Origin: Eledone cirrhosa
Taxonomy: Eukaryota
DNA length: 64,000 nucleotides
Reading direction: 5' to 3'
Assembly (NCBI GenBank): GCA_964016885.1
Contig: OZ024742.1
Location: 113,646,001 to 113,710,000, forward strand
The notes beneath the pieces are model-generated. The model had not been told where the DNA came from, made no database searches, and saw only the letters and a program-made list of their open reading frames with translations. This document shows positions 1,437 to 48,700 of this stretch, piece after piece. Within the stretch, counting starts at the first letter, position 1; each line of letters opens with the position of its first letter. The position numbers and the translations under genes are program-made.

Positions 1437-1509
<73 letters not shown>

Positions 1510-1563
1510 GTGGGAAAGTAAGACATCGGAGAATAGACCGTTAAAACATGTTTATTTAGAACA

Positions 1564-1606
1564 GCACCTACGTATGTTTCGCCCAGTTGGGCTTCTCAAG
1601 GGTATA
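1564..1606 (-). ncRNA. minimal type I hammerhead ribozyme, U3-A8 core variant
   Basis: Minus strand TATACCC-TTGAGAA-GCCCaactGGGC-GAAA-CATACG-TA-GGTGC, in sense orientation in the PLE 3' UTR. Confidence 0.7.
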
Positions 1607-1833
1607 AATAATCAAAAGTGTTCCTTACATTGCTCGGAAAGAGTTTTGGGGGTTAAATCCACGTCAAGGTTCATTGCTCGCAAAAATAGCTTGTTTTAAT
1701 TTTGCAGCAGGTCAAGGGAGGTAACTCTGACCGGTGTTAGGGCAGTCTTTCCCGGACAAATGTTGTTTTATCTGCTACGAGATGAGGTTACAACCTTACC
1801 ATAGTCGATACGCATGTAATCAACGCTTATCTT

Positions 1834-1864
<31 letters not shown>

Positions 1865-1973
1865 GTCGTTTGAGGCTGTGTCTGGTATGCAATGATTCTT
1901 TCCTGGGTGTTATTTTGCAGCGCCTGCCCGCCGGGGTGTTAAGACTCGTTGTAGGGAGATCCGGTGCACGGTT

Positions 1974-4580
1974 TCACTCCTCAACCTTAACCCATCTGAA
2001 GAAGGATATTTTTAAGCGATGTGTGAAACTTATCGCTGTTACAGCTCTGCTGTTGATAAGCTCGTTGGGTGCAGTTATGATGTGGTAAAGCTCCATGAGG
2101 AAAAAATCGCATTTCCTCTTGAAGTTGTACGGTGCAGCCCTGCCGACAATCTCCCAGTGCGTGGAGAAGCTGATGTTTAAGTCCTTTAGTGATGTGATGT
2201 AGTCCGCGAGCGAAGTGGATTGCCTTAGTTTTCTATTTTTGGAAGAGTGGAGATGTGTTCGAAACCTAATTTTGAACGGGCCGGAAGTAGCCCCTATATA
2301 ATGTTTAACGCTATTGTGGCTAGTAATAGTGCATCTATATATAACTCTATCAGTCAAACAGTATTCTTTAAGGGGGCAGCGTCCTCTCTCGCGGCAGTTG
2401 CAATTTCTGTCGCGGTTCCGTCTATTTCCCACGGTAAGGTTATCATTGTTGCTGCCTACGTTGTTACCTACGCTACCGCAGTTGTCGTTAGCACCATTAC
2501 AACCCACAGCACGCGGGGTGGTGCGATTGTTATTCCGCACGTCATGTCCTGCATGTTCCCCAGTCATTTCGCGGTTATGCTGGTTGCGTCTGCGGATGCC
2601 GTTGCCCACTATTGGATGCTGCGAGGGAGTTGTTAAGGCAGATATAGTTATTGTTAGGTGTAGGTGCGTCTTTGTCGAGGTGCTGTGTCTTGGTGATCTT
2701 ACTGTGGTTCGTTGTTCCTATGATGTCTGCTAGGTTAGGAGTAGTAGAGAAGGATATTTGTTATATTGTTCCTATTAAGAATGTTTCTATACCTATGGTT
2801 GGGCGGGAAGTTCTTCTCGAAGGCTTCGAAGCACATCCGGGGTATGCGGGTGGCCACACTCCGAGAGTTTGGGTGGTGGAACCATAGGACGTACGGTGGT
2901 GATTACGTGTCCTTATACGTTTGCTACGGGTGGTTCCATCTAGGTGCTCGTTCTTATGTGTGTTAATGCGCAGTCGCCCGTTCGGTACCCCTTTCAATTT
3001 ATGCTCGGGTGCACTCTTCCTACCTCTTCCATGTTTATGTACAGGAAGATGTTGGTTGGAAGGCGTTGGTAGTAGGCCGTCGCCTTTGTTGGTTTTTGTA
3101 ATAGGGGAATAGTTCGAGTAATCTACAGTGGTCACCGTCACCGGGGTCGTGATAATTAATGCGGTTAGCTATTCTATTATATCCTACTTCAACGAGGTCG
3201 CCGCGTGATCGGTTATAGGTATGGCTTACTATAACGTTCGTTTTATGAGGGGGGGGGGGTCTAGAACCAGCGTTAGGGATGTAGGAAATTCCTCGGTTAA
3301 AGCCGGCGCTTATCAAGGCCTTATTGTAGTAATCTGCCGCTTGGTTGAAGATATTCATTGGCGGATAGCCTCGAGATTCTATGTGAGATACCATAGACTA
3401 TGGAGTTGAGAGTCTGCATAGGGTGGTTGGAGGCATAATTAATATAAGAGAGGCACTCTCCAGGCTTATGGTATGGCTTGTATAAGCCCGTATTCAAATC
3501 CAGGGTCACGTCTAGGAAGTTGACAAATCTGTGGTTGAGGTCCATAGTTACGGATAGGCCGTATGACTTGAAGAACCTGTGTATAGGTTTCTTAAGGTTC
3601 TCTATCCTACGGGGGCTATTGTTCCAAACGGAAAACAGGGCGTTGTCCCTATATACACCTCCTTGTAGGGCCGGTATCTCTTCCCTAAGTTTATGTAGGA
3701 TGTATATCCCGACCGGGTCAGTTGCTTGCGCTGAGTCACTGGACCCCATCATGACATCTAAGTTATCAGGACGGTTGGTTCTGGTCCAGTGGGAGCCTTC
3801 GAACTGGATAATGGTTCGACGCGCCGCTAGAATTATGTCTATTACTTTTTTTAGTGAGGCCAGTGTTAGATTTAGCTAAGATAAGTGCCTTATTTAAGAG
3901 TATGGGGGAGATAGAGGCGTAGTAACTATCTATGTCAAACTGGATGAACTTCAGGGTGCCTTTATCCGGCAACTCGGTGAACCAATTTATGACCTGGTCG
4001 GTGTTGCCCCAGAGGCCGACCTTAACCTTTCTATTAAGCTCCAGTAGTACTCTGTCGAGGATGACATAACTAATCTTACCTATATCTGATGTAGAGGGGC
4101 CTATTAGTCTAATAGAGGGGCTTTCATTAAAGTCATATTTGTGATCCTTAAGAGAGAATTTAGGCGTCAGAGGGACGTACGGGTTAGTGTACTTTTCTCT
4201 TTCTAAGCTGGTGACTATATCCTTCCCTACTCTATTTATGTAATTTAGGGTACTAGAGGGTGTCTTTTTGTAGTCTTTGTGTAGTTCCTTATAGATGATT
4301 TTTTTAATACTTACTCGCGTCCATCTTGTACAGCTTTTTGGTTTTGTCGGAGGTGACGAAGAGGTGCGGGTTATTCTTGATCTTATTTATTAGTGTATCA
4401 AGGGACGTTCAGAATGGATTGCTGCATTCGTGTTTCTCTCTGAATTTAACGTGTTTGATCATTTTCAGCAGGGCCTCTTCAAAGGAGTCCAGTAAGGTGT
4501 TGTGCGGTGGGTTTCGGTATGTTTTGAAGCCATACCTCTCTTTGGGTTCAGGAAGGTTACGGGGGTTCTTATCCACGTTG
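1974..4580 (-). pseudogene. disrupted PLE RT-endonuclease ORF
   Basis: Multiple frameshifts split it into ORFs 4409-4594, 3766-3972, 3321-3752, 3035-3394 and 1974-2609; the catalytic YRDD reads YRDN. Confidence 0.9.
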
Positions 4581-4659
4581 TATATATTGTACATCCAAAT
4601 TTTATTACATATATATAGTTACATATTTTATTAGTATTATAGTTTTATAATATATATAG

Positions 4660-5180
4660 AGTTATATATTGTATTTTATATATTTTTATATATTTTTAAA
4701 TATTTTTAAATATACCTACCATACTTCTATATACATGTTTCAAATATAGAGAAAATATCCAAACTAAAAATTATTATAGACATTATTTTGAATTGTATAC
4801 ATGCACTCATTGTTCGTTATTCTTATATGTATGTTTATACATATTTAAATGTAGCACGTTGTTAAGAGTATAACTGTTATCATTTACCTAAAGTATACTA
4901 CATCAATAATACCTAATATATATCTAGTTATATATTGTAATTTATATATTTTTAAATATTTTTAAGTATACCTACCATACTTCTATATACTTGATTCAAA
5001 TTTAGAGAAAATATCCAAACTAAAAATTATTATAGACATTATTTTGAATTTTATACATGCACTCATTGTTCGTTTTCCTTATATGTATATATATATATAT
5101 TTAAATGTAACACGTTGTTAAGAGTATAAATGTTATCATTTACCTAAAGTATACTATATTAGTAACACCTAATATATATC
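4660..5180. repeat. tandem duplication of about 260 bp (AT-rich)
   Basis: 4660-4925 and 4926-5180 share long runs such as TATACCTACCATACTT and GAGAAAATATCCAAACTAAAAATTATTATAGACATTATTTTGAATT. Confidence 0.9.
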
Positions 5181-5904
5181 TATATATATACATCGCTATA
5201 TCTAATAATATGTTGATATCTTGGTTGAAGAATAATTATAAATATCTATAAATTTTGTTCGTAACATATTTTATTTTATTTTTACCTCATACATGCTGAC
5301 TCATTAATATATACATATATACATAATAGTTATTGAAATATTTACAACAATAAGTACTTTAAAAGATTTACATACCTAATATGTTGAGATATTTGTTAAA
5401 GTTTAGATTTAGGTAATTAATCAACAGTATAATATTTCATTCTTTACGTGCCAGCTAAATCCTTTAAAATGTTATTCTCAAAAGTTTAGAAATGATAACA
5501 CACTTATAGAATTTATATAAATAATATATAAATAAATAGCAAATAATCCTGAAATCTGGAGTCTTCACATTAATATTATAAATTAAATATTTCCAAATTC
5601 TAACCGATTAACTTTCGAAAAGAAAACCCCACACATTATCTTTCCCTCCTTATACATCTTTTTCCAGTGGCTATCACTGGCTGTTATGATTTTAGGAGAC
5701 GTTTCCCTAGATGTAGTATCATACAATTTAAAATTTTAGAACACTTTAAGTATGCAACGTTTTTTTCTTCTTACTCACACATTCTCTAATGAATTCATTA
5801 CGTTTTCGCACTCCAACACAAATATTATATAAACAAAATGTTCTATCGTATAATCACTACCTTGATTAAATCTTAACCATGTAACATCTCAGGGTATGTC
5901 ATGT

Positions 5905-8171: not shown

Positions 8172-8687
<516 letters not shown>

Positions 8688-10527: not shown

Positions 10528-10568
<41 letters not shown>

Positions 10569-10770
10569 TCGTTTGGAAGCCTCGACAATGCAAATGGGTA
10601 AAACTCCGGGTAACAATGTCCGGTGGTGGAGAGAGAGATGTAAGTGGGTGTACGTTCAGATGCGTGGTGTCTATAAGATGTCTGAGTTGTGTAGAATGGA
10701 TGGAAGAGTAAAAGGATAAAAATAAAAATAACAACACAAGAGAGAGTTACCTTGGGAGAGATTTAATAGT

Positions 10771-10819
10771 CCCTATATATTTCGGATTCACATCCATCAA
10801 CTGAGGTTTTTTTCAGGGG
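10771..10819 (-). ncRNA. atypical hammerhead-like motif with core insertion (mirror copy at 12379-12427 +)
   Basis: CCC-CTGAAAAAAACCTCAGTTGAT-GGATgtgaATCC-GAAA-TATA-TA-GGG. Confidence 0.45.
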
Positions 10820-11473
10820 TGGGGGAAAAGGTGGTCTGTTGGACAAGTCCGGAAGGCGTCTTTCGCTGTTTGCTGATTTGAATATCTGAGGTATTCGGCA
10901 GAGCGCGCGTGCGCGTGAAATGGGGTCGGTCGTACAAAGGTCAGCGGCCGAATGAGGGAGTGGGATGGCGCTAGCTGTCAGTCCATTCTCTGCCTGTTTG
11001 TTAGATGTTACTGTGTGTGTGTGTGCGTGTGTTGTTGTCTCGCTTGAGTGTGTGTGTGTGTGTGTGTGCGTGTGTTGTTGCCTTGTTCATCTGTATTGGC
11101 AGTGTAGTATGTTCGTATGGTGGAATGCTACAATGTGTGTGTGCGTGTTTGTGCGTGTGTGTGTGTGGTTGTATCGTTTGTGTGTGTGTGTGTGCGTGCG
11201 TGTGTTGTGTGTTGTTGCATCGCTTGTTAACTTAAACCAGCCATTTCATTTCGCTTCTCTCTGATCGGTTGTTTATTTGCGGTTGCAGGCGTTTGATAAA
11301 AAATGCTTGCTTGATACGTAACGTGCCGACGTTTCTTTCAGTCGCTAGAATTGTGACAATGGGCCTTCCGTCTTTGTTTCCGCATTTGTTTATGTGTTTC
11401 CGGAAAGACGAGGCCCTGGTTTTAGTGTGTTCCTTGATCCGGATGTGCAAAGGTCAAATTGTGCTACCTATGT

Positions 11474-11982
11474 TACAGAGAAACACCCAAGGCAAGTGCT
11501 TCCTTAAAATGCCACACCTGGGCGAGAAAACCACCAACGCTATCCGCAAGGCTATACGGAGGGAGGGCCTCGACATCCACCTGGCCCACTCGGGCCCCTC
11601 CCTGCGAAGATGCCTCTCCAGGAAACCCGAAAAATCTATTGACGCATGCTCCCTCAGAGAATGCCCGACACGCCATGCTAACTGTTGCCTACGCACATAC
11701 GTCGTGTATGAGATAGAATGTGACAGGTGCAACCAATACTACATAGGTAGCACAATTCGACCTTTGCACATCCGACTCAAGGAACACACTAAAACCAGGG
11801 CCTCGTCTTTCCGGAAACACATAGACACATGCGGAAACAAAGACGGAAGGCCCATTGTCACAATTCTAGCGACTGAAAGAAACGTCGGCACGTTACATAT
11901 CAAGGAAGCACTTTTTATCAAACGCCTGCAACCGCAAATAAACAACCGATTAGAGAGAAGCGAAATGAAATGGCTGGTTTAA
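11474..11982 (+). pseudogene. PLE C-terminal GIY-YIG endonuclease fragment
   Basis: CSLRECPTRHANCCLRTYVVYEIECDRCNQYYIGSTIRPLHIRLKEH...LHIKEALFIKRLQPQINNRLE. Confidence 0.9.
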
Positions 11983-12007
11983 GTTAACAAGCGATGCAAC
12001 AACACAC

Positions 12008-12041
<34 letters not shown>

Positions 12042-12679
12042 AGACAACCACACACACACGCGCACACACACATTCCAGCATACGAATATACTACACTGAC
12101 AATACAGATGAACAAAGCAACAACACACACACACACACACACACACACACTCAATCGAGACAACAACACACGCACACACACACACGGTAACATCTAACAA
12201 ACAGGCAGAGAATGGACTGACACCTAGCGCCATCCCACTCCCTCATTCGGCCGCTGACCTTTGTACGACCGACCCCATTTCACGTGTACGCGTGCTCTAC
12301 CGAATACCTCAGATATTCAAATCAGCAAACAGCGAAAGACGCCTTCCGGACTTGTCCGAAAGACAATCTTTTCCCCCACCCCGGAAAAAAACCCCAGTTA
12401 ATGGATGTGAATCCGAAATATATAGGGACTATTCTCTCCCAAGGTAACTCTCTCTTGTGTTGTTATTTTTATTTTTATCCTTTTACTCTTCTCTCCATTC
12501 TACACATCTCACATATCTTATACACACCACGCATCTCAACGTACACCCACTTACATCTCTCTCTCCGCCACCGGACCTTGTTACCCGGAGATTTACCCAT
12601 TTGCATTGTCGAGGCTTCCAAACGACTTATAGATATTTACTTATTGTTCCACAATGCTTCAAGCAAACTTCAATACTCT

Positions 12680-29919: not shown

Positions 29920-29981
<62 letters not shown>

Positions 29982-30072
29982 CGAAGGAAATGTGGTAAGG
30001 AACCAGGTGGACCATAACGCACCAAAGTACTCAATACTTGAGGTAGTAGAGTGGGTAATAGGAACCAGTAAG

Positions 30073-30166
30073 ACCCCGACAGCTGAGCTCAAGCCGTTTC
30101 GACGGCTAATTCTGGACTAAATGAACATTTATCCTGGTATTTAAATAGCCGATCTTCTCAAGGGGT
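30073..30166 (-). ncRNA. type I hammerhead ribozyme (U3-A8, extended stem II), inverted pLTR copy
   Basis: Reverse complement of 31405-31498. Confidence 0.85.
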
Positions 30167-31404
30167 AATTCCATATATGGTCAAAGTGATTGTCAAAAAT
30201 CAGTAGTAATTCTGTGGTTGCAAATTAGTGGGGAGATGGTGGCTAAACCTGCCAGTAGGAGAAAGAGGGGAGGGGGTGGAGTAGACCCAATCAAGCGTTG
30301 GTAGTGCCAGCTACAGCTGGGCATGAGGTCAAAGAAGATACAGGGGAGGGGGAGGGGGAGGAAGTCGGAACGGTAGGTAGAACAATGGGGGGTAAAGATA
30401 GGAAAGAAAAAATACTGAGAGTGCAGAAAAGCAAATAAGTGTAAAGAAAAAATTAAATTCTACGACCTAGGTGTCAGGTTATTGTTAAGCGAGAATAAAA
30501 TAAAGAAAGAAAGAAAGAAGTAAATAAATAAATAAATAAATAAATAAGGAAATAAGTAAAAGAACTAGGTGGGACGAATTAGGCAAGGACCCTTTTAAGA
30601 GGTATAAGTACGTAAATGATACGGTGACTGGTCAACAAAAGGGGCCAAAATACTAAAGAGACTACCACGAAATAAACAATAAAGGTTTCCATCCCGGGCC
30701 AGCAACGACCCAGTGCAGCAAAGTGAACTTGTACGACATAATAATTCTGAGTCCCGGGAAAAATATATACTAATGCTAACTCTAAAAGATCTAAAACAGG
30801 CTACATGAAAGTTCGTACGAAATAAAGGTAGAATACGGAGAAATAAGTTCAGAATCCACCCCGCCCAGAAGAAAAGCGAAGCAAGAAATACTGAAACGAA
30901 AAAATAAGGCATAAGTGCCACTAAGAAATATAGAGGGCACAGAGAATAGTGGGAGCGGTCGGAAAAGGGGGGCAAGTATCCGGGGTCTAAGCCAACTGCT
31001 ATAAAGGGCGGAGTCCGCCAAATCTATCAAAGACTAGGGGAGGGGGGAGTGGGGGTACTAAGGCTACATGGGGCCAAAGGAATTTAATTTTTTGGGATGT
31101 TCTTGGTAGAGAATTTAATTTTTTCTTTACACTTATTTGCTTTTCTTCACTCTCAGTATTTTTTCTTTCCTATCTTTACCCCCCATTGTTCTACCTACCG
31201 TTCCGACTTCCTCCCCCTCCCCCTCCCCTGTATCTTCTTTGACCTCATGCCCAGCTGTAGCTGGCACTACCAACTCTTGATTGGGTCTACTCCACCCCCT
31301 CCCCTCTTTCTCCTACTGGCAGGTTTAGCCACCATCTCCCCACTAATTTGCAACCACAGAATTACTACTGATTTTTGACAATCACTTTGACCATATATGG
31401 AATT

Positions 31405-31498
31405 ACCCCTTGAGAAGATCGGCTATTTAAATACCAGGATAAATGTTCATTTAGTCCAGAATTAGCCGTCGAAACGGCTTGAGCTCAGCTGTCGGGGT
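31405..31498 (+). ncRNA. type I hammerhead ribozyme (U3-A8, extended stem II), 5' pLTR copy
   Basis: ACCCC-TTGAGAA-GAtCGGCTA[37 nt]TAGCCGTC-GAAA-CGGCttgagctcaGCTG-TC-GGGGT; GUC cleavage predicted after 31493. Confidence 0.85.
31424..31456 (+). promoter_or_regulatory. candidate Pol II core promoter (TATA box + initiator) inside hammerhead stem II
   Basis: TATTTAAA at 31424 and Inr-like TTAGTC with A at 31453 (29-nt spacing); short family copies start at this A/G. Confidence 0.55.
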
Positions 31499-31683
31499 CT
31501 TACTGGTTCCTATTACCCACTCTACTACCTCAAGTATTGAGTACTTTGGTGCGTTATGGTCCACCTGGTTCCTTACCACATTTCCTTCGTTATCTAGCTC
31601 CTACTCCCGTAGTAGAGCACTTTCCGACCCTACCACGCCGTATCCAGACTTTTCCGCTAAGCTCAATTCATTTCACCCGCACC

Positions 31684-33837
31684 ATGCGAAAACACAACAT
31701 TGACTTCTCTACCAAGAACATCCCAATCCCACCGAAAAAACTTTACCTTCGGATGCTCACGCAAAAAATTGATCTATTTGCGAAAAGACTTAGATGGAGA
31801 ACTTTTTTCTATGACAGATATTGCGACAACCAAGACTTCGGCACCAAGGAGAGATTCGGATTTATTACCTACAAATCTCCGCCCCTGAACCCCTTGCTCG
31901 CACCCTTCGAGAATGACCTCTTCCAACTGGTCAAGAACATTAAATTTAAACCCAGACACAACCGATTCCTACAAAAACTCCGTAGCAACTTAACAGAGTA
32001 TGATAACACAAATGACATCATGGTGCATTCGGATAAAACTGGGAACCTATACTTTGTCAACCCTGACAGATACCACACACTGATCAGGAGCAGCCTAAAC
32101 TCCACCTATAAAAAGGCCAACCACTCTTGCATCGAGGACATAAATCGAGATGGACAACAAATCACCTCCAGCCTCGGGGTCGCCGACCGCACGGAACCTC
32201 TAGACCCACGGACACCATACTTCACACTGAAGGACCATAAATCCGATTTTGACCGTAAACCCTCCATCAGGCTTATTAACCCAACGAAGTCCGACATAGG
32301 GAGAATCAGCAAAAAAATCCTAGACCGCGTGATACCAAAAGTCAAGCAACACACCCGACTTAGCCTATGGATCAACACCCAGGAAGTAATCTCCTGGTTC
32401 AGCAATATGGAGGATAAACGAGAAACTAAATTCATACAGTTCGACATAGAGAGCTACTATGCTTCAATCACCTTACCGCTACTTACTGCCGCCTTGGACT
32501 TCGCCGAAACACTCGTGCCCATCACCGACCAGGAAAGAAAAATCATCCTCCACGCCAGGAAGACAGTCTTACTCTTTGACGACTCTAAATGGATAAAAAG
32601 AGCTCCCGACTCACCCTTCGACGTCAGCACGGGCGCCACAGATTCGGCGGAGGTCACTGATCTTATAGGATTATTCCTAATAGCCAAACTCACTGATATG
32701 TTTCCTGCATTCGGTGGTGGATTGTACCGTGATGATGGGCTCCTTACCCTTAAAGGGTACAACCCCAGTAGTACAGATCGGGTCCGGAAACAATTAATCA
32801 GATTCTTCCGCGACTGGGGATTTAAAATAACCCTACAAACGTCCCTGACCCGAGTAAACTTCCTGGACGTAACCCTCGACCTCGAAAACGACCTGTACTA
32901 CCCATACAGGAAACCTAATGACAATCTGCACTACATCCACCGCCGATCAAACCATCCTAGGAACATCACAAACAACCTGGTCAAAAACATCTCCCTCCGC
33001 ATATCCCGTTTGTCAGCTAATGAGCGGATATTCGATGAACATGCGCCTTATTACAACCAGGCCCTCAAGCGGAGTGGTTTCCGGGAGGAAATATCCTACT
33101 GTCCAGATCCCATTAGCGGAACCAGCAGGAGACACCGCCGCTCACGCAATGTAACATGGTTCAATCCTCCCCACAACGCAGAGGTGACTACTCCCATCGG
33201 GAAACTATTCTTTAGGCTCATTGAAAAACACTTCCCATTACAACACCGCTACCACAACATAATTAACAAAAATACCATCAAACTCTCTTACAGCACTACA
33301 CCAAACTTCGCACAAAACATCGTCTCCTCTAACAACAAAAAACTCAACCCCGATGGCAGAAATAACCTAAATAGCAGTGGAGAACCGACCAGGAGGTGTA
33401 ACTGCCCGGATAGATCTATTTGCCCACTCGACAATAGATGCAGAGACCGTAATGTGATCTACCAGTGCAACGTGAGGACGGATACCTCCAACAAAGCCTA
33501 TATAGGACTTACCGCATGTGACTTCAAGACCCGGCTATACCAACATAGACATACCTTCCGAAACCCGGCCCGGCGTCACGCCACTACACTTTCGGGCCAC
33601 ATATGGGACCTCAAGGACAACAACATCACCTATGATCTCACTTGGAGATTACTGTCCAGAGCCAATTCTTACACGGGAGGACGCCGTCCGTGCAATTTAT
33701 GCTCGGAGGAAACTTTACAAATGCTGTTTTCGACGGACCAACTCCTAAACAAGAAAGATGAACTGGTTACTGCATGTAAACATAGATTGCGTAGGACTTA
33801 CCTCGCCCTCAAACCCCATAATGACCCGGGGGGGTAG
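31684..33837 (+). CDS. PLE polyprotein: reverse transcriptase + CxC zinc linker + GIY-YIG endonuclease (717 aa from the first ATG)
   Basis: RT motifs FIQFDIESYYASI, GLYRDDGL, VNFLDVTLDL; linker CNCPDRSICPLDNRC; EN VIYQC...AYIGLT...FKTRLYQH...CNLCSEE...CKH; ATG at 31684 lies within the 31537-33837 open frame. Confidence 0.95.
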   Translation: MRKHNIDFSTKNIPIPPKKLYLRMLTQKIDLFAKRLRWRTFFYDRYCDNQDFGTKERFGFITYKSPPLNPLLAPFENDLFQLVKNIKFKPRHNRFLQKLRSNLTEYDNTNDIMVHSDKTGNLYFVNPDRYHTLIRSSLNSTYKKANHSCIEDINRDGQQITSSLGVADRTEPLDPRTPYFTLKDHKSDFDRKPSIRLINPTKSDIGRISKKILDRVIPKVKQHTRLSLWINTQEVISWFSNMEDKRETKFIQFDIESYYASITLPLLTAALDFAETLVPITDQERKIILHARKTVLLFDDSKWIKRAPDSPFDVSTGATDSAEVTDLIGLFLIAKLTDMFPAFGGGLYRDDGLLTLKGYNPSSTDRVRKQLIRFFRDWGFKITLQTSLTRVNFLDVTLDLENDLYYPYRKPNDNLHYIHRRSNHPRNITNNLVKNISLRISRLSANERIFDEHAPYYNQALKRSGFREEISYCPDPISGTSRRHRRSRNVTWFNPPHNAEVTTPIGKLFFRLIEKHFPLQHRYHNIINKNTIKLSYSTTPNFAQNIVSSNNKKLNPDGRNNLNSSGEPTRRCNCPDRSICPLDNRCRDRNVIYQCNVRTDTSNKAYIGLTACDFKTRLYQHRHTFRNPARRHATTLSGHIWDLKDNNITYDLTWRLLSRANSYTGGRRPCNLCSEETLQMLFSTDQLLNKKDELVTACKHRLRRTYLALKPHNDPGG

Positions 33838-34940
33838 ACTAGGGCTATAACACCCCAGTTGCCGATTTTGCAATGGGTAACCCCTGCTTGCCAAGGAAGA
33901 CGTAAGATCTTCTTTGTATTCTTTTATCGCATCCTTTATTTCCTTCCCCCCTCTCTCCTTTGTCCTTCTACCCCAGCTCTTCTCCTTTGTCGGCGTCTTT
34001 TCTCGCCCACCCGAGTTTGCCCTTTGGCCCCATGTAGCCTTAGTACCCCCACTCCCCCCTCCCCTAGTCTTTGATAGATTTGGCGGACTCCGCCCTTTAT
34101 AGCAGTTGGCTTAGACCCCGGATACTTGCCCCCCTTTTCCGACCGCTTCCACTATTCTCTGTGCCCTCTATATTTCTTAGTGGCACTTATGCCTTATTTT
34201 TTCGTTTCAGTATTTCTTGCTTCGCTTTTCTTCTGGGCGGGGTGGATTCTGAACTTATTTCTCCGTATTCTACCTTTATTTCGTACGAACTTTCATGTAG
34301 CCTGTTTTAGATCTTTTAGAGTTAGCATTAGTATATATTTTTCCCGGGACTCAGAATTATTATGTCGTACAAGTTCACTTTGCTGCACTGGGTCGTTGCT
34401 GGCCCGGGATGGAAACCTTTATTGTTTATTTCGTGGTAGTCTCTTTAGTATTTTGGCCCCTTTTGTTGACCAGTCACCGTATCATTTACGTACTTATACC
34501 TCTTAAAAGGGTCCTTGCCTAATTCGTCCCACCTAGATCTTTTACTTATTTCCTTATTTATTTATTTATTTATTTATTTACTTCTTTCTTTCTTTCTTTA
34601 TTTTATTCTCGCCTAACAATAGCCTGACACCTAGGTCGTAGAATTTAATTTTTTCTTTACACTTATTTGCTTTTCTTCACTCTCAGTATTTTTTCTTTCC
34701 TATCTTTACCCCCCATTGTTCTACCTACCGTTCCGACTTCCTCCCCCTCCCCCTCCCCCTCCCCTGTATCTTCTTTGACCTCATGCCCAGCTGTAGCTGG
34801 CACTACCAACGCTTGATTGGGTCTACTCCACCCCCTCCCCTCTTTCTCCTACTGGCAGGTTTAGCCACCATCTCCCCACTAATTTGCAACCACAGAATTA
34901 CTACTGATTTTTGACAATCACTTTGACCATATATGGAATT

Positions 34941-35034
34941 ACCCCTTGAGAAGATCGGCTATTTAAATACCAGGATAAATGTTCATTTAGTCCAGAATTA
35001 GCCGTCGAAACGGCTTGAGCTCAGCTGTCGGGGT
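34941..35034 (+). ncRNA. type I hammerhead ribozyme (U3-A8, extended stem II), 3' pLTR copy
   Basis: Identical to 31405-31498; cleavage predicted after 35029; the element ends 19 nt later at (TA)n. Confidence 0.85.
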
Positions 35035-35044
35035 CTTACTGGTT

Positions 35045-35086
<42 letters not shown>

Positions 35087-35119: not shown

Positions 35120-35327
35120 GAAAATGTTCAAGACCCCATCGGCAGAGCTAAAGCCGTTTCGACGGAGTCCAGAAAGCCGTTCTGGAGTCCAGAAATAGCT
35201 GTCGTAACGGCTTGAGCTCTCTGTCATCGAGGACTTGAACATTTTCCTACTACCCACTCTACTATAATTAGTATTGAGTACTCTAGTGCGTTGTGGTCCA
35301 GATGGTTACTTAACACACTTCCTTCGG
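35120..35327. mobile_element. diverged head-to-head pLTR fragment of the same PLE family
   Basis: Minus arm 35120-35165; plus arm starts AGTCCAGAAATAGCTGTCG at 35186 and ends CTTCCTTCG at 35326. Confidence 0.85.
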
Positions 35328-35793
35328 TGTGTAAGGCGGACCTTCGTAAATACCTGAAAATCCGCCTCTTCATTGCTGTAGTGGACTCTGTGATGTTGTG
35401 CGGGACTGAGACTTGGACACTGACCAAGAAACTCACTCAGATGGTGGATGGGTGCTACACGAGAATGCTTAGGAAGGTTCGGAACATTAATCAGTATTCA
35501 CTGAGGATGAAAAACTCAGAGCTGTATGGGAGCCTCCCAAATGTCAGCTCAAATGTGACACAGAGGAGAATTAGATTAGCTGGACATGCTCACCGACATC
35601 TAGAGTTGACATTGCACTCAGTGTTCCTGTGGGAGCTCCTACATGGACACACTGGAAGAGGAAGATCAAGGTTAACGTATGTCGATGCCTAAGGACTGAC
35701 ACTGGTATGTTGGAGTCGCAGGAAATGGCAGAGATGATGAGGGACAGCGACCACTGGAGAGAAGTCGTCCATGGATCTCGCGAATTTTACCCG

Positions 35794-38709: not shown

Positions 38710-40235
38710 ATTAAAATAACAGATTAAAGTTTAAGCAAATAATCTCTGCTTTCAGATTTAAGAATCATGTAAATAAATTAGTAGAACGAAAATGACGGAG
38801 GTTATTGAAATCCACAAAAATTAAATATATGCATACATGCATCTATATACTTACATACATATGCATACGCAGAACACCCGCCATGCATGCATATACAAGC
38901 ACGTATAAATAAACACCCGCACACATACATAAACCCGCACGACACCTATACCCGTACACATACAAACGTATACTCCAAACACATTAAAAAAATAATAAAA
39001 AAAATAAAAAAGTAACAAAATAATAAAAATATATATATATATGTGTTTGTGTATACATGTAATTATATTAACTTACATAAATATACACACATACACATGT
39101 AAATACCGCACGCACACAGGTATCTACAGGTAAATACACATGTTCACTAAACTACGGCAGCCAAAACACGAACTACACGTATACACACCTTACATACGGG
39201 TCAACACGCATAAACACACAAACCCAAAATACGCATTATACACATAACCATATACACAAGTACCAGTATATATAATTGTTTCTCCTTTTTGGCACAAGGC
39301 CAGAAATTTATTTAGTTCATTACCGGTACTTTATTTTATCGACGCCGTAAGGATGAAAGGCAAAGTTAACCACGGCGGGATTTGACCTCAGAATAACAGA
39401 GGCGGTAACTATATGCGTCAAAACATGGCGCCCGAACCTCTACCGATACTGCCAAACCACCGCCATTGTACCAGTATATATAATATAATATATACACCAA
39501 TAACAAATACAAGCAGATATACGTACGAGAAAGTATACGTACCATCACAAAACATACGGGTAAGGTATACTTACCTATAGAAATTAGTAATGGTATAAAC
39601 AAAACATATACTTAGCTACCACATCAATACGTACCACATCAAGACAAATTATCCGCGTATTGTTCGTACTATCCGTTAGTGTATAATGTGGGGCTGTAAT
39701 ACAGGAAAGGGTTATGCAATTTACGTTTACAAGCCGAAATTGCCTCACATTTTTTGTTTAAGATGTGGTCATTGGAGCAGAGTATTACCAGGGATTCAGC
39801 GGCGCAAATATAGCATGGTCTTTAATTTCCGTTATGCGATCTAGCCCTAGCTAAGATCTCCAAGTGTAACCTATATTGGGTGTGGTTTTCTTTTACACTC
39901 CAGATATAAGCTGAAAGTGACGTCATATTCCTTCTAAAAGGGTGACGAAAAGAATGGGTGTGTATGTAATGACGCTGCTTGAATCTATTGGCGGTTAACC
40001 CTATGTACGCCCTACGTGGGTGTTTCGACCTTACATTTGTAGACAATGTTACTGGAGAAGCATTTCCCGGATAGAGGGCAGTCAACCCGATTCCTACTAT
40101 TAGAGTTACTACTAGCTACAGAGGTGTACGTGTTCCTACGGTTAGGTAATTTAGATAAATTTGAAGCAGTGATGTTATGTGTAAGTTTAGGAGTCGTAGA
40201 ATAAGATATTTTAATGTTTTTTCTATTGAACATGT
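38710..40235 (-). mobile_element. 5'-truncated PLE: GIY-YIG remnant (39700-40235) plus 3' UTR/pLTR
   Basis: NIKISYSTTPKL...DCPLSGKC...IVYKC / AYIGLTANRFKQRHYIH...TSLSAYIW; the UTR ends in the 411-1381 pLTR family sequence. Confidence 0.88.
39272..39464 (-). mobile_element. tRNA-derived SINE, family A, with target-site duplication
   Basis: Family consensus; GTACCAGTATATATA on both sides; nested in the PLE UTR. Confidence 0.92.
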
Positions 40236-40269
40236 TATTATATATATATATATATATATATATAATAAA

Positions 40270-42476: not shown

Positions 42477-43124
42477 GTCTGCATATGAACAAATATATAA
42501 CCAACATTTAGTAGTACTACTCTCTTTAATTCGTTACGCATATATTTATTCAAATATAGAAGTAGGTTGTATGTTCTTAATAATTTGTCAACTAGAATCT
42601 CTAGACTTTCGGCTAATAATGATATTTCACCCCAAATGCCATATATTTTTATGGTGCTCTTTCCAGATCTGGCTATAAGGATAAAATACGGTTCACGCCT
42701 CTATGTAAATTAGCTAATAGTGGGATTTATGTACATAAATGTATTTTTAAACCTATTTGTATTATTGTGCACAAATATAATTTACTTAATGCTAATGAAA
42801 ATTCTAAAACTGTAAAAATAATAGATATTGTAATATTTAACGAAAAATAATAATTTTAATAAGAACATAATACTAAACTACAAGTAAATCTCTTGACAGT
42901 CAAACGTTAAACAAATAAATTAAATAATACTGAGAGGAAGGGAGAGAAACATATATAAATATTAATAACATATATGGAATTCAAATAGCGTCCCATACAT
43001 CCCAGATAATATTTAGTATGTTAAAAAAAACGTTTTACCCCAAGGACATAAATACTACACTGTAATAAACAAAAATATTGGTAAATTATCTTTCTCCACT
43101 ACATTTATTTTAGTTGAACTATAA

Positions 43125-43312
43125 ATAATTTTTTCTACTTTTGGCACAAGGCCAGCAAATACACAATGTATTACTGATTCTTTATGTTATCGACCCTGTA
43201 AGGATGAAATGCAAAGTTAACCTCGGTGGGATGTGAAATCAGAATGGCAAAGGCCGTTATTCTATACGTCAAAGAATGGTGCCCGACGTTCTACCGATGC
43301 TGCCAATCCACC
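43125..43312 (-). mobile_element. tRNA-derived SINE, family A
   Basis: Matches family consensus (diverged). Confidence 0.85.
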
Positions 43313-43539
43313 ATATTAACTTATATAAACTGGAACAAAAAACGTCCGGCACGAAACCAGCTCGAAGACGGGGATAACGTTAACAGTAATATTACTATCT
43401 ATTGTGTTGATATTAATGAACATTATAATGGGGACAATTTTAATTACAATAAGATAACGAATAGTGAAAATTATCTAACTTAACAGGGTAATATCTAAAT
43501 AATCTCTTAATAAGAAAAGTCTACTAACCAAATGAAATT

Positions 43540-43925
43540 GTAGGATCCTTGACATATGCCTTCTTAGAGGAGATTATCTTAGAAGAAATTTAATGGATAA
43601 TTGCAAGGAATTATCTCGCCATAAATCGTTTAATTATATAGAGGCCGCTACTAATATATATGTTTAAAGAATACTGTGCACATATACACGCCTTTAAGGT
43701 TGAAAAATAAAGTAATTCAACCTCAGTAGCTAAACATTTTTGGTCTCTAAAGAAATATAGTATTCAGTACACTTTGAGATAGAATAGTATTAATTCAGCA
43801 ATATCCTATAATGGGAGCAGACCTAAATTAAATATTTGTGAACGAAGCATTAGAAAGAGTAACGTGTAAGATTAGTCTTCTTAACTCTAGAAATGAAATA
43901 GTACATTCGCGAGTGCATAAGAGCT
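43540..43925 (+). pseudogene. heavily decayed PLE GIY-YIG remnant
   Basis: Frameshifted words ICLLRGDYL, YIEAATN, NSTSVAKHFWSLK..SIQYTL, AISYNG, LLNSRNEIV parallel the intact ORF C-terminus. Confidence 0.65.
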
Positions 43926-48218: not shown

Positions 48219-48286
<68 letters not shown>

Positions 48287-48289
<3 letters not shown>

Positions 48290-48449
48290 CGAAGGAAATG
48301 TCGTGAGGGACGAGATGGACCATAACGCACCAAAGTACTCAATACTTAGGGTAGTAGAGTGGGTAATAGGAACGAGTCGGACCCCGACGGCTGAACTCAA
48401 TCCGTTTCGACGGCTAATTCTGGTCCAGAATTAACCGTGGAAACGGATT
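48287..48449 (-). mobile_element. short pLTR unit of the 30-35 kb PLE family with short inverted head
   Basis: Reverse complement of 31455-31592 (48287-48423), followed by GTCCAGAATTAACCGTGGAAACGG on the plus strand. Confidence 0.9.
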
Positions 48450-48520
48450 TATCGTTTTCGAAATTGTATTTCACAGGATATATGGCAGTAATTATAGATA
48501 ACATTATATATATTTTATAA

Positions 48521-48700
48521 GGGCGGTGGATTGGCAGTATTGGTAGAGGGTCGGACGCCATGCTTTGCAGCAAACAGTTACGTCCCTTTATGGGCTGAGT
48601 TCAAATCCCGCCGAGGTTAACTTTGTCTTTCATCCTTACGGGGTCGATAAAATAAAGCTTGGGATAATTGCTGGCCTTGTACCAAATGTAGAAAACATTA
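48521..48700 (+). mobile_element. tRNA-derived SINE, family A
   Basis: GGGCGGTGGATTGGCAGTATTGGT...GAGTTCAAATCCC; AACATTATATATATT on both sides. Confidence 0.92.

Follow-up and report, generated by a model that had tools for sequence, protein, structure and literature searches.

A short, abundant repeat from the leader of a Hydra-clade Penelope-like element: a probable cDNA product started at hairpin-marked sites

The Hydra clade, the tail, internal initiation of reverse transcription, U3-A8 hammerheads and the idea of a circular template were already known. In the part of Craig et al. (2021, PMC8557442) used here, Hydra-clade Penelope-like elements (PLEs) are defined by the protein motif RWK, by the absence of GxKF/Y, by DKT, by CxCX5C, by CxxC and CxH around a conserved E and N, and by the absence of CCHH. 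In the sections of Frangieh et al. (2024, PMC11167929) that concern PAc, a Poseidon-clade element from Anolis, the tail is the stretch between two internal RT starts in vitro. Passages of two further papers report the U3-A8 hammerhead variant in PLEs (PMC4209133) and a TATA box plus initiator in pLTRs (PMC3846280). How the RT of a PLE chooses an internal start, and why only one arm of an insertion carries the tail, are described as awaiting testing in passages of PMC11167929 and PMC8557442.

We analysed a 64,000-nt stretch of AT-rich eukaryotic DNA (the window), which is dense in (TA)n tracts. An initial annotation had singled out a 140-nt unit in it (31453-31592) as a candidate structured small RNA or RT-recognition element. 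We find that the unit lies in the 5' leader of an element that, judged by its motifs, is a Hydra-clade PLE and that is inserted in (TA)n, the target that is a trait of this clade. The insertion has these parts:

29975..35049, unstranded: whole Hydra-clade PLE insertion (clade by motifs) in (TA)n, with an inverted left arm, a junction and a more-than-unit right arm (self-BLAST, inverted repeats)
29975..31080, minus strand: inverted 5'-truncated arm made of 3' UTR, pLTR and 80-nt tail, its distal-site end running into (TA)n
31081..31113, unstranded: head-to-head junction, a 14-nt duplication of the right arm's start plus a 22-nt inverted piece
31110..31513, plus strand: 5' pLTR, 98% identical to 34640-35049
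31684..33837, plus strand: uninterrupted ORF of 717 aa with RT (YRDD) plus, at the C terminus, a region of GIY-YIG type
34640..35049, plus strand: 3' pLTR, in which the hammerhead motif is complete (about 34941-35034); the proximal-site end of the pLTR runs into (TA)n

The domains and the clade of the ORF were assigned by motifs: YRDD and VIYQC...YIGLT read as a single ORF with RT plus, at its C terminus, a GIY-YIG endonuclease. (Pfam and PDB sequence searches gave no match for the 717-aa ORF or its alignment.) Among 7999 candidates scored, 2165 homologues were found at E ≤ 0.001, the best with 38-53% identity. The ORF agrees with all the protein motifs in the Hydra definition given in that part of PMC8557442. 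It has RWR where the clade, and the consensus of the homologues, has RWK; DKT, an altered DKG; CNCPDRSIC as the CxCX5C linker; CNLC as CxxC; CKH as CxH; and one Cys between the GIY and YIG equivalents. GxKF, searched for as G.KF, is absent from the ORF, as is CCHH.

The left arm (1.1 kb) is 99% identical both to 34021-35049 and to 31110-31596. The 22-nt inverted piece of the junction (31092-31113) derives from the start of the ORF (31705-31726), and the junction looks like the footprint of a template switch. The three pLTR copies of the insertion carry one private change each, which is the pattern expected from one template; the alternative would be a homogeneous tandem parent. With 3940 nt, the right arm exceeds the 3536 nt of one unit of the element, so the insertion would need continuation of the cDNA past the 5' end of the RNA.

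The 140-nt unit itself is real, abundant and sharply bounded. Self-BLAST recovered a copy at each of the three places named in the initial annotation: 8423-8562 on the plus strand (92.9% identity), 48283-48423 on the minus strand (90.1%) and 35186-35326 on the plus strand (79.6%). The last belongs to a diverged subfamily, with no CTTCGTTA terminus and no (TA)n after it. There is also a copy that the annotation did not list, at 29975-30118 on the minus strand, within the inverted arm of the full element. The single 3' end that had been supposed for the unit gave way to two fixed ends, 31513 and 31593, which recur in the window copies and in contigs from public sequencing runs:

31510..31513, plus strand: proximal insertion end, the putative RT start 1, with TAT microhomology to the target
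31590..31593, plus strand: distal insertion end, the putative RT start 2, with TAT microhomology; four window copies run from here into (TA)n
31514..31593, plus strand: 80-nt 'tail' between both ends, on one arm only in 4/4 two-ended window insertions

Four window copies stop at the equivalent of 31510-31513 (at 35049, about 8210, 8361 and about 35121). The public data are contigs from four runs (X1, X2, X4 and X5) that represent at most three samples from two studies, X1 and X2 being one sample. Loose ends in (AT)n occur at 31513 in at least 84, 8 and 82 contigs of X1, X4 and X2, respectively, and in none among the matches listed in X5. At 31593 they occur in at least 302, 16, 4 and 352 contigs of X1, X4, X5 and X2. 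In all four runs, the summed contig depth, which is no measure of copy number and which we rejected as one, rises 8- to 13-fold at 31453 and drops 27- to 56-fold past 31593, to levels over the ORF that are hundreds of times lower. (One X1 contig also connects 31723 to 31454; together with the junction piece, this suggests that the start of the ORF may be a recurrent switch point.)

That the unit extends about 100 nt past the ribozyme cut, and hence cannot come from a cleaved 3' pLTR, had been claimed and holds: its end lies 97-100 nt beyond the predicted cut. A tail between two internal RT starts, as already known, would explain this distance without a separate RNA. The unit is most likely a cDNA product and not a discrete RNA.

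The 5' edge of the unit falls inside a predicted ribozyme:

31405..31498, plus strand: type I hammerhead motif, U3-A8 core variant, with an enlarged stem II loop; predicted cut after 31493
31424..31433, plus strand: TATA-like box inside the stem II loop, with the 5' ends of the short arms about 30 nt downstream
31453..31457, plus strand: putative transcription start, +1 to +5, the 5' limit of the short copies

The hammerhead motif has a predicted three-way fold in which all three stems and GAAA/GUC are present and U3-A8 replaces the canonical core. Rfam gave no match to this region. A common variant, 31490 T>C (73% of X1 depth), turns a G-U pair of stem III into G-C. (Another, 31410 T>C, is at ribozyme position 3 and makes up about 27% of X1 depth.) From its position, the TATA-like box may act as a promoter. 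The stretch 31464-31479 can form a 6-bp hairpin with a CGAA loop, which in an RNA from +1 would mask the GAAA of the ribozyme; it is possible that this hairpin is a conformational switch.

Just downstream of each of the two fixed ends is a copy of one hairpin motif, RCWC-stem-loop-stem-NN-GWGY-RCU:

31519..31545, plus strand: H-A (RCWC-stem-NN-GWGY-RCU), 5 nt after the proximal end
31597..31621, plus strand: H-B, where the motif recurs; it begins 3 nt after the distal end, beyond the 140-nt unit

These are the only two matches in the 3.9-kb element, one behind each end (0.001 per shuffle, with a descriptor that was chosen after the motif had been seen). All 8 pairs of H-A are retained in 5/5 window copies, and the common read variants in it fall in the loop (31530 and 31531) and in the bulge (31538). 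As an independent test set we used 11 loci (L054-L064) that encode relatives 35-43% identical to the ORF. They are filed in bacterial bins and are probably host-animal DNA, given their (TA)n tracts and hammerheads. (The ribozyme of L054, whose protein is 43% identical, resembles that of Hydra-2_Amil by eye.) A descriptor fixed before these loci were seen matched in 6/11, and one widened by two observed variants matched in 10/11; the one miss is a contig that ends inside its ribozyme. The widened descriptor gave 19 matches in 51,955 bases, as against 0.56 expected from shuffles and 0 in 41,575 control bases; 4 of the 19 are outside the element, in an unrelated palindromic repeat of L055. A scan of metagenome contigs with an 18-nt pattern returned 53 loci, none alike beyond 18-29 nt, which we reused as a negative control, and two scans of viral contigs found no relative. 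Within File S7 of PMC8557442, we see the motif by eye in Hydra-2_Amil, in Hydra-2_Ajap and twice in Hydra-1_Ajap, and imperfectly in Hydra-1_Crog. In two of the six new Hydra consensus sequences of that file, Hydra-1_Amil and Hydra-1_Obim, we do not see it by eye.

The motif covaries. Because MAFFT does not align hairpins of variable length, we counted pairs from the two anchored ends: the first three pairs of the upper stem are Watson-Crick in 16/16, 13/16 and 13/16 instances (permutation means of 8.1, 4.6 and 5.7). Among 22 distinct anchor pairs taken with no filter on the upper stem, a 2-nt bulge gives 50/64 pairs and other bulges give 21-29 of 56-66. On a model-fitted alignment, which is biased towards the structure and has part of the upper stem out of place (54% paired in it), the covariation score exceeds 500/500 shuffles and all six slid controls, and the pair-type measures do not exceed them. 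When a covariance model derived solely from six sequences outside the window is run over the 64 kb, H-B scores highest (23.8 bits, E 0.006), with the H-A copies next. The predicted fold favours the hairpins only moderately, with pair probabilities for H-A and H-B of about 0.35 and 0.3-0.6 in 31453-31700, and of 0.0 and 0.05-0.1 in 31505-31630.

The hairpins also stand at a fixed distance from the ends. Of 17 instances examined, 8 (at 7 distinct sites) are matched by another copy with an end close by, and every one of these ends is 3-6 nt upstream of the hairpin. TAT occurs 2-6 nt upstream in 12/16 instances, where about 1 is expected from the local background, and microhomology of TAT with the target is clear at only 5/7 junctions. 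The idea that a UA end could pair with (TA)n is thus borne out, for UA(U), at both ends. Where two hairpins are present (the window, L055, L056, L062 and L064), they start 63-78 nt apart. Each hairpin is probably a candidate signal that tells the RT where to start.

The short insertions in the window repeat the same two ends:

8208..8350, unstranded: short head-to-head insertion, proximal arm (minus, from +5) plus 5'-truncated distal arm (plus)
8358..8562, unstranded: short head-to-head insertion, proximal arm (minus, from +2) plus distal arm (plus, from +5)
35121..35329, unstranded: short head-to-head insertion of the diverged subfamily, proximal arm (minus, from +14) and distal arm (plus, from +1), with a small duplication at the joint
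48283..48449, unstranded: short insertion, distal arm (minus, from +4, carrying the double change discussed below) plus 27 nt left of the opposite arm (from +2)

Of their eight arms, six begin at +1 to +5, one at +14 and one near +75-80. The five joints in the window all differ, so the insertions arose separately. Among the 11 two-ended insertions, nine have the proximal site on one arm and the distal site on the other: four of them in the window, one in L061 and two each in L057 (both short) and L063. The other two, the main insertion of L057 and that of L060, have the same site on both arms. At even odds, the binomial probability of this count is 0.03 (by hand); the cases are partly dependent on each other, and the count omits the 48.3-kb insertion and every locus of which a single end is visible. 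The count is in line with the statement in PMC8557442, in the part used here, that often just one end carries the tail. The insertions at 4520-4801 and 5205-5619 of L057 and at 5757-5860 and 5890-6190 of L063 are short and head-to-head, with one proximal and one distal arm. (By eye, L063 5890-6190 is similar to Hydra-2_Amil, and its end lies about 5 nt ahead of the hairpin of that family.) The arms of one short L057 insertion start well upstream of its ribozyme, so a fixed stop point is not universal for short arms.

To explain these observations, we propose that the Hydra-clade PLE gives rise to the 140-nt unit as a short piece of cDNA, started at hairpin-marked sites, and we consider this probable. 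Transcription would start from the pLTR promoter at about 31453, inside the stem II loop of the hammerhead, so that the RNA's 5' end would hold only half a ribozyme and stay uncut, while the complete ribozyme of the 3' pLTR could cut at +41. The RT-endonuclease would dock on the bulged hairpin, which is present twice in the leader (H-A and H-B) and presumably bound as RNA. Reverse transcription would then start 3-6 nt upstream of each hairpin, usually with UAU paired to the nicked (TA)n target. If the two target strands are usually primed one per site, the result would be a head-to-head insertion with the 80-nt tail on one arm. Most cDNAs would run off the 5' end of the RNA at +1 and then be joined, giving arms of about 60 nt and 140 nt. 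A minority would continue, either by jumping to the RNA's 3' end via the +1..+41 overlap that ribozyme cleavage creates, or on a circular or tandem RNA, and these would give the long and more-than-unit arms. (Immediately before +1 the contig depth is 7-13% of its value immediately after, which is no more than a rough hint on the size of the continuing minority.) Since 140-nt copies include neither H-B nor the TATA-like box, no further copying from the distal site is expected of them. The very abundant short repeat would then be a by-product and not a SINE or a small-RNA gene.

A more specific form of this proposal is possible, and we hold it only tentatively: a dimer of the RT-endonuclease might sit on the two tandem hairpins as on a landing pad with two berths, prime both cut (TA)n strands together via the 3-nt UAU patch, make strong-stop cDNAs up to the cap, and reach full length by a transfer at the terminal overlap that is set by the promoter inside the hammerhead. 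If so, replication in the sister group of telomerase would follow an LTR-like logic and use a defined RNA motif to bind the RT, and a single scheme would account for pLTRs, tails and inverted arms.

One alternative is that the hairpin acts as DNA: the GIY-YIG endonuclease would recognize it in single-stranded cDNA or in a cruciform extruded from some longer intermediate, cut 3-6 nt upstream, and trim the ends. The motif has few G-U pairs, so its pairing does not separate an RNA form from a DNA form, and trimming would explain the fixed offset equally well. Also, endonuclease-mediated resolution has been proposed as the origin of the tail (in a passage of PMC8557442), and the endonuclease from D. 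virilis is reported to have required the tail for cutting a plasmid (in a section of PMC11167929). However, the covarying inner stem excludes recognition of plain double-stranded sequence; in another PLE, the RT starts on RNA in vitro at both boundaries of the tail, according to the same section of PMC11167929; and trimming leaves both the arm stops at +1 and the UAU upstream of the hairpin unexplained. On balance, the DNA-level explanation seems unlikely.

A second alternative is the reading in the initial annotation, a discrete RNA of about 140 nt, or else SINE-like copies with an internal promoter, copied from the UA end. In favour of it are the sharp edges of the unit and the summed contig depth of its bins, which is hundreds of times that of the ORF bins (again, not a copy number). 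Penelope has an internal promoter (in a passage of PMC2377424), so transcription of short copies might be followed by a new round of copying that starts from a (UA)n read-through tail. In X1 and X2, one opposite-strand joint (31454-31547) turns up again with higher depth, so some short forms may amplify. Against this reading stand the second fixed end at 31513 and the use of the distal end by the 1.1-kb arm (29975-31080), and the short copies lack the TATA-like box and come as five insertions with five different joints. Also, the conserved hairpin that marks the end of the 140 nt, H-B, is outside the unit, so the template must extend beyond it.

Nor is the structure that had been described for the unit supported. 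It folds no better than its shuffles in 4/4 copies (z of +1.18, −0.58, −0.78 and +0.03). The complementary strings of the three hairpins named in the initial annotation are present in 31453-31592, but the first two fail as structures: their pair probability is about 0.05 in a fold of 31453-31700, the second is broken in 2/4 other copies, and the outer pair of the first is broken in 1/4 other copies and by 31546 T>C, which makes up 43-77% of the depth in the four runs. The third is predicted by folding:

31566..31578, plus strand: third hairpin of the initial annotation, 4 bp, 12 nt before the distal end, pair probability 0.82-0.99

It has a G-A mismatch in the 35.2-kb copy. The compensatory double change ascribed to it does exist in the 48.3-kb copy (31567 G>C and 31577 C>G), but it is a single event; 3-6% of random copies with 9-13 substitutions would carry a compensated, intact 4-bp hairpin. 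In X1, X2 and X4, 31567 G>C is under the 3% listing threshold, and the single G>C place of these runs is 31505. This hairpin is a possible minor element, for which the covariation is anecdotal. The expectation of a covarying hairpin in the region was correct in that there is one, but it is a different hairpin, which overlaps the first of the named hairpins in another register. Similarly, the region holds a candidate hairpin like an RT-recognition element, but this is not one of the named structures. The suggested likeness to telomerase extends to a short alignment patch, but not to a separate RNA with a reiterated template and a boundary element: the unit is copied once, within the element's own leader.

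We also looked for a Pol III B box, a T4 terminator and a poly(A) signal at the end of the unit and found none; the first T4 is at 31650, there is no AATAAA in 31453-31700, and there is one lone A-box-like match. A search of Rfam over the 64 kb gave no match at the gathering score, and one over 31300-31750 gave one chance match (E 2.8). We rejected a Pol III SINE for the lack of a B box and of T4 or another 3'-end signal, the two ends, and the shuffle-like fold. We rejected a MITE-like master for its asymmetric ends and five different joints, and a non-LTR retrozyme in view of short copies that are head-to-head, begin at +1 or later, and are without the 5' half of the core. For the unit itself, a small-RNA origin seems unlikely, slightly more so than trimming of DNA. 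Least likely of all is that +1 is not a transcription start and that the short arms reflect self-priming on an antisense template or stalling of the RT at 31464-31479, with all arms made from circular or tandem RNA: the right arm exceeds one unit of the element, and passages of earlier papers propose antisense self-priming for head-to-head PLE palindromes (PMC3846280) and circular templates (PMC4209133), but fold-back predicts symmetric arms, and the outer ends differ in 9/11, and the arms extend through the 31464-31479 hairpin to a stop 7-11 nt past it, some 30 nt behind the TATA-like box.

The window holds other repeats as well. A second, broken Hydra-like family (1508-4543, minus strand) is 32-50% identical to the ORF and has a (TA)n end, and near 1565-1605 is a compact hammerhead-like motif with the same start of the U3-A8 core. 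Old fragments of Hydra-like ORFs are found at 39690-40239 (minus strand, with (TA)n on its 5' side) and 43035-43839 (plus strand), with 34-57% identity in short stretches. A large head-to-head inverted repeat beside (TA)n (10550-12644) includes a GIY-YIG ORF (11236-11982; Pfam PF01541, E 7.6e-05) and is likely a truncated PLE of another clade; we looked for the Hydra hairpin in it and found none. At 35330-35790, adjoining the distal end of the 35.2-kb short copy, is a GC-richer stretch with an open frame and a (TA)n end that looks like the 3' fragment of a LINE and has no Pfam match. Finally, a dispersed SINE-like repeat of 100-200 nt (D17/D18), which may resemble a cephalopod SINE, occurs at 212, 28293, 38120, 39362, 43213, 47384, 58370 and 48480-48620.

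Compared with the Hydra clade as presented in the part of PMC8557442 used here, the element shares the protein motifs, a predicted hammerhead in the pLTR, the (TA)n target, the inverted 5'-truncated arm and the one-end tail. It differs in its unit of 3.5 kb (Hydra elements are mostly below 3 kb), in its tail of 80 nt (30-40 bp is quoted there for PLEs), and in its hammerhead motif, which has the U3-A8 core and, within its stem II loop, a TATA-like box. The words 'hairpin' and 'stem-loop' do not occur in the main text or the supplement text of that paper.

The likeness to PAc is in the mechanism. In the sections of PMC11167929 concerned, two internal RT starts downstream of the hammerhead bound the tail, the target is AT-rich, both strands are cut and extended, and a dimer is predicted, much as we propose for our element. 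In contrast, the PAc starts are inside an AC-rich stem-loop in the ORF and have no homology to the target, and the binding motif is placed only within the first 172 nt of the ORF. In the Hydra families here, the putative starts fall within the leader at a spacing of 65-78 nt where measured, each is just upstream of its own hairpin, and most have UAU microhomology. We did not find the hairpin motif in the published PAc stretch given in those sections.

Non-LTR retrozymes and SINE-like derivatives of PLEs, as presented in part of a recent preprint (bioRxiv 10.64898/2026.07.22.740005), are likewise short, non-coding, derived from pLTRs and very numerous. They are tandem units with a whole hammerhead, whereas the copies here are dispersed head-to-head pairs with only the 3' half of the ribozyme and without their own end-marking hairpin.

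New here are the hairpin that occurs twice, behind each end, the rule of one site per arm, and the strong-stop-like copies. We did not find these three in the open-access literature searched (Repbase and subscription papers could hold the motif), and no Rfam entry matched the twin hairpin. A covarying hairpin of 25 nt that keeps a distance of 3-6 nt from each insertion end, in families whose proteins are only 35-43% identical, is a concrete and mutable candidate for an RT-binding signal. The intact ORF alongside the hairpins makes the element usable for in vitro work, and the hairpin offset gives a rule for curating the ends of Hydra elements.

In retroviral minus-strand strong-stop DNA and in hepadnaviral epsilon priming, synthesis starts near the 5' end of the RNA by a protein-binding hairpin, a short cDNA is made up to the cap, and transfer at a terminal overlap is possible. 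Telomerase aligns its DNA primer on a template patch of 2-3 nt. The scheme proposed here would resemble all three, with nicked genomic (TA)n as the primer instead of a tRNA, a protein or a telomere, and with two docking hairpins; we mean a functional analogy, not a relationship of sequence.
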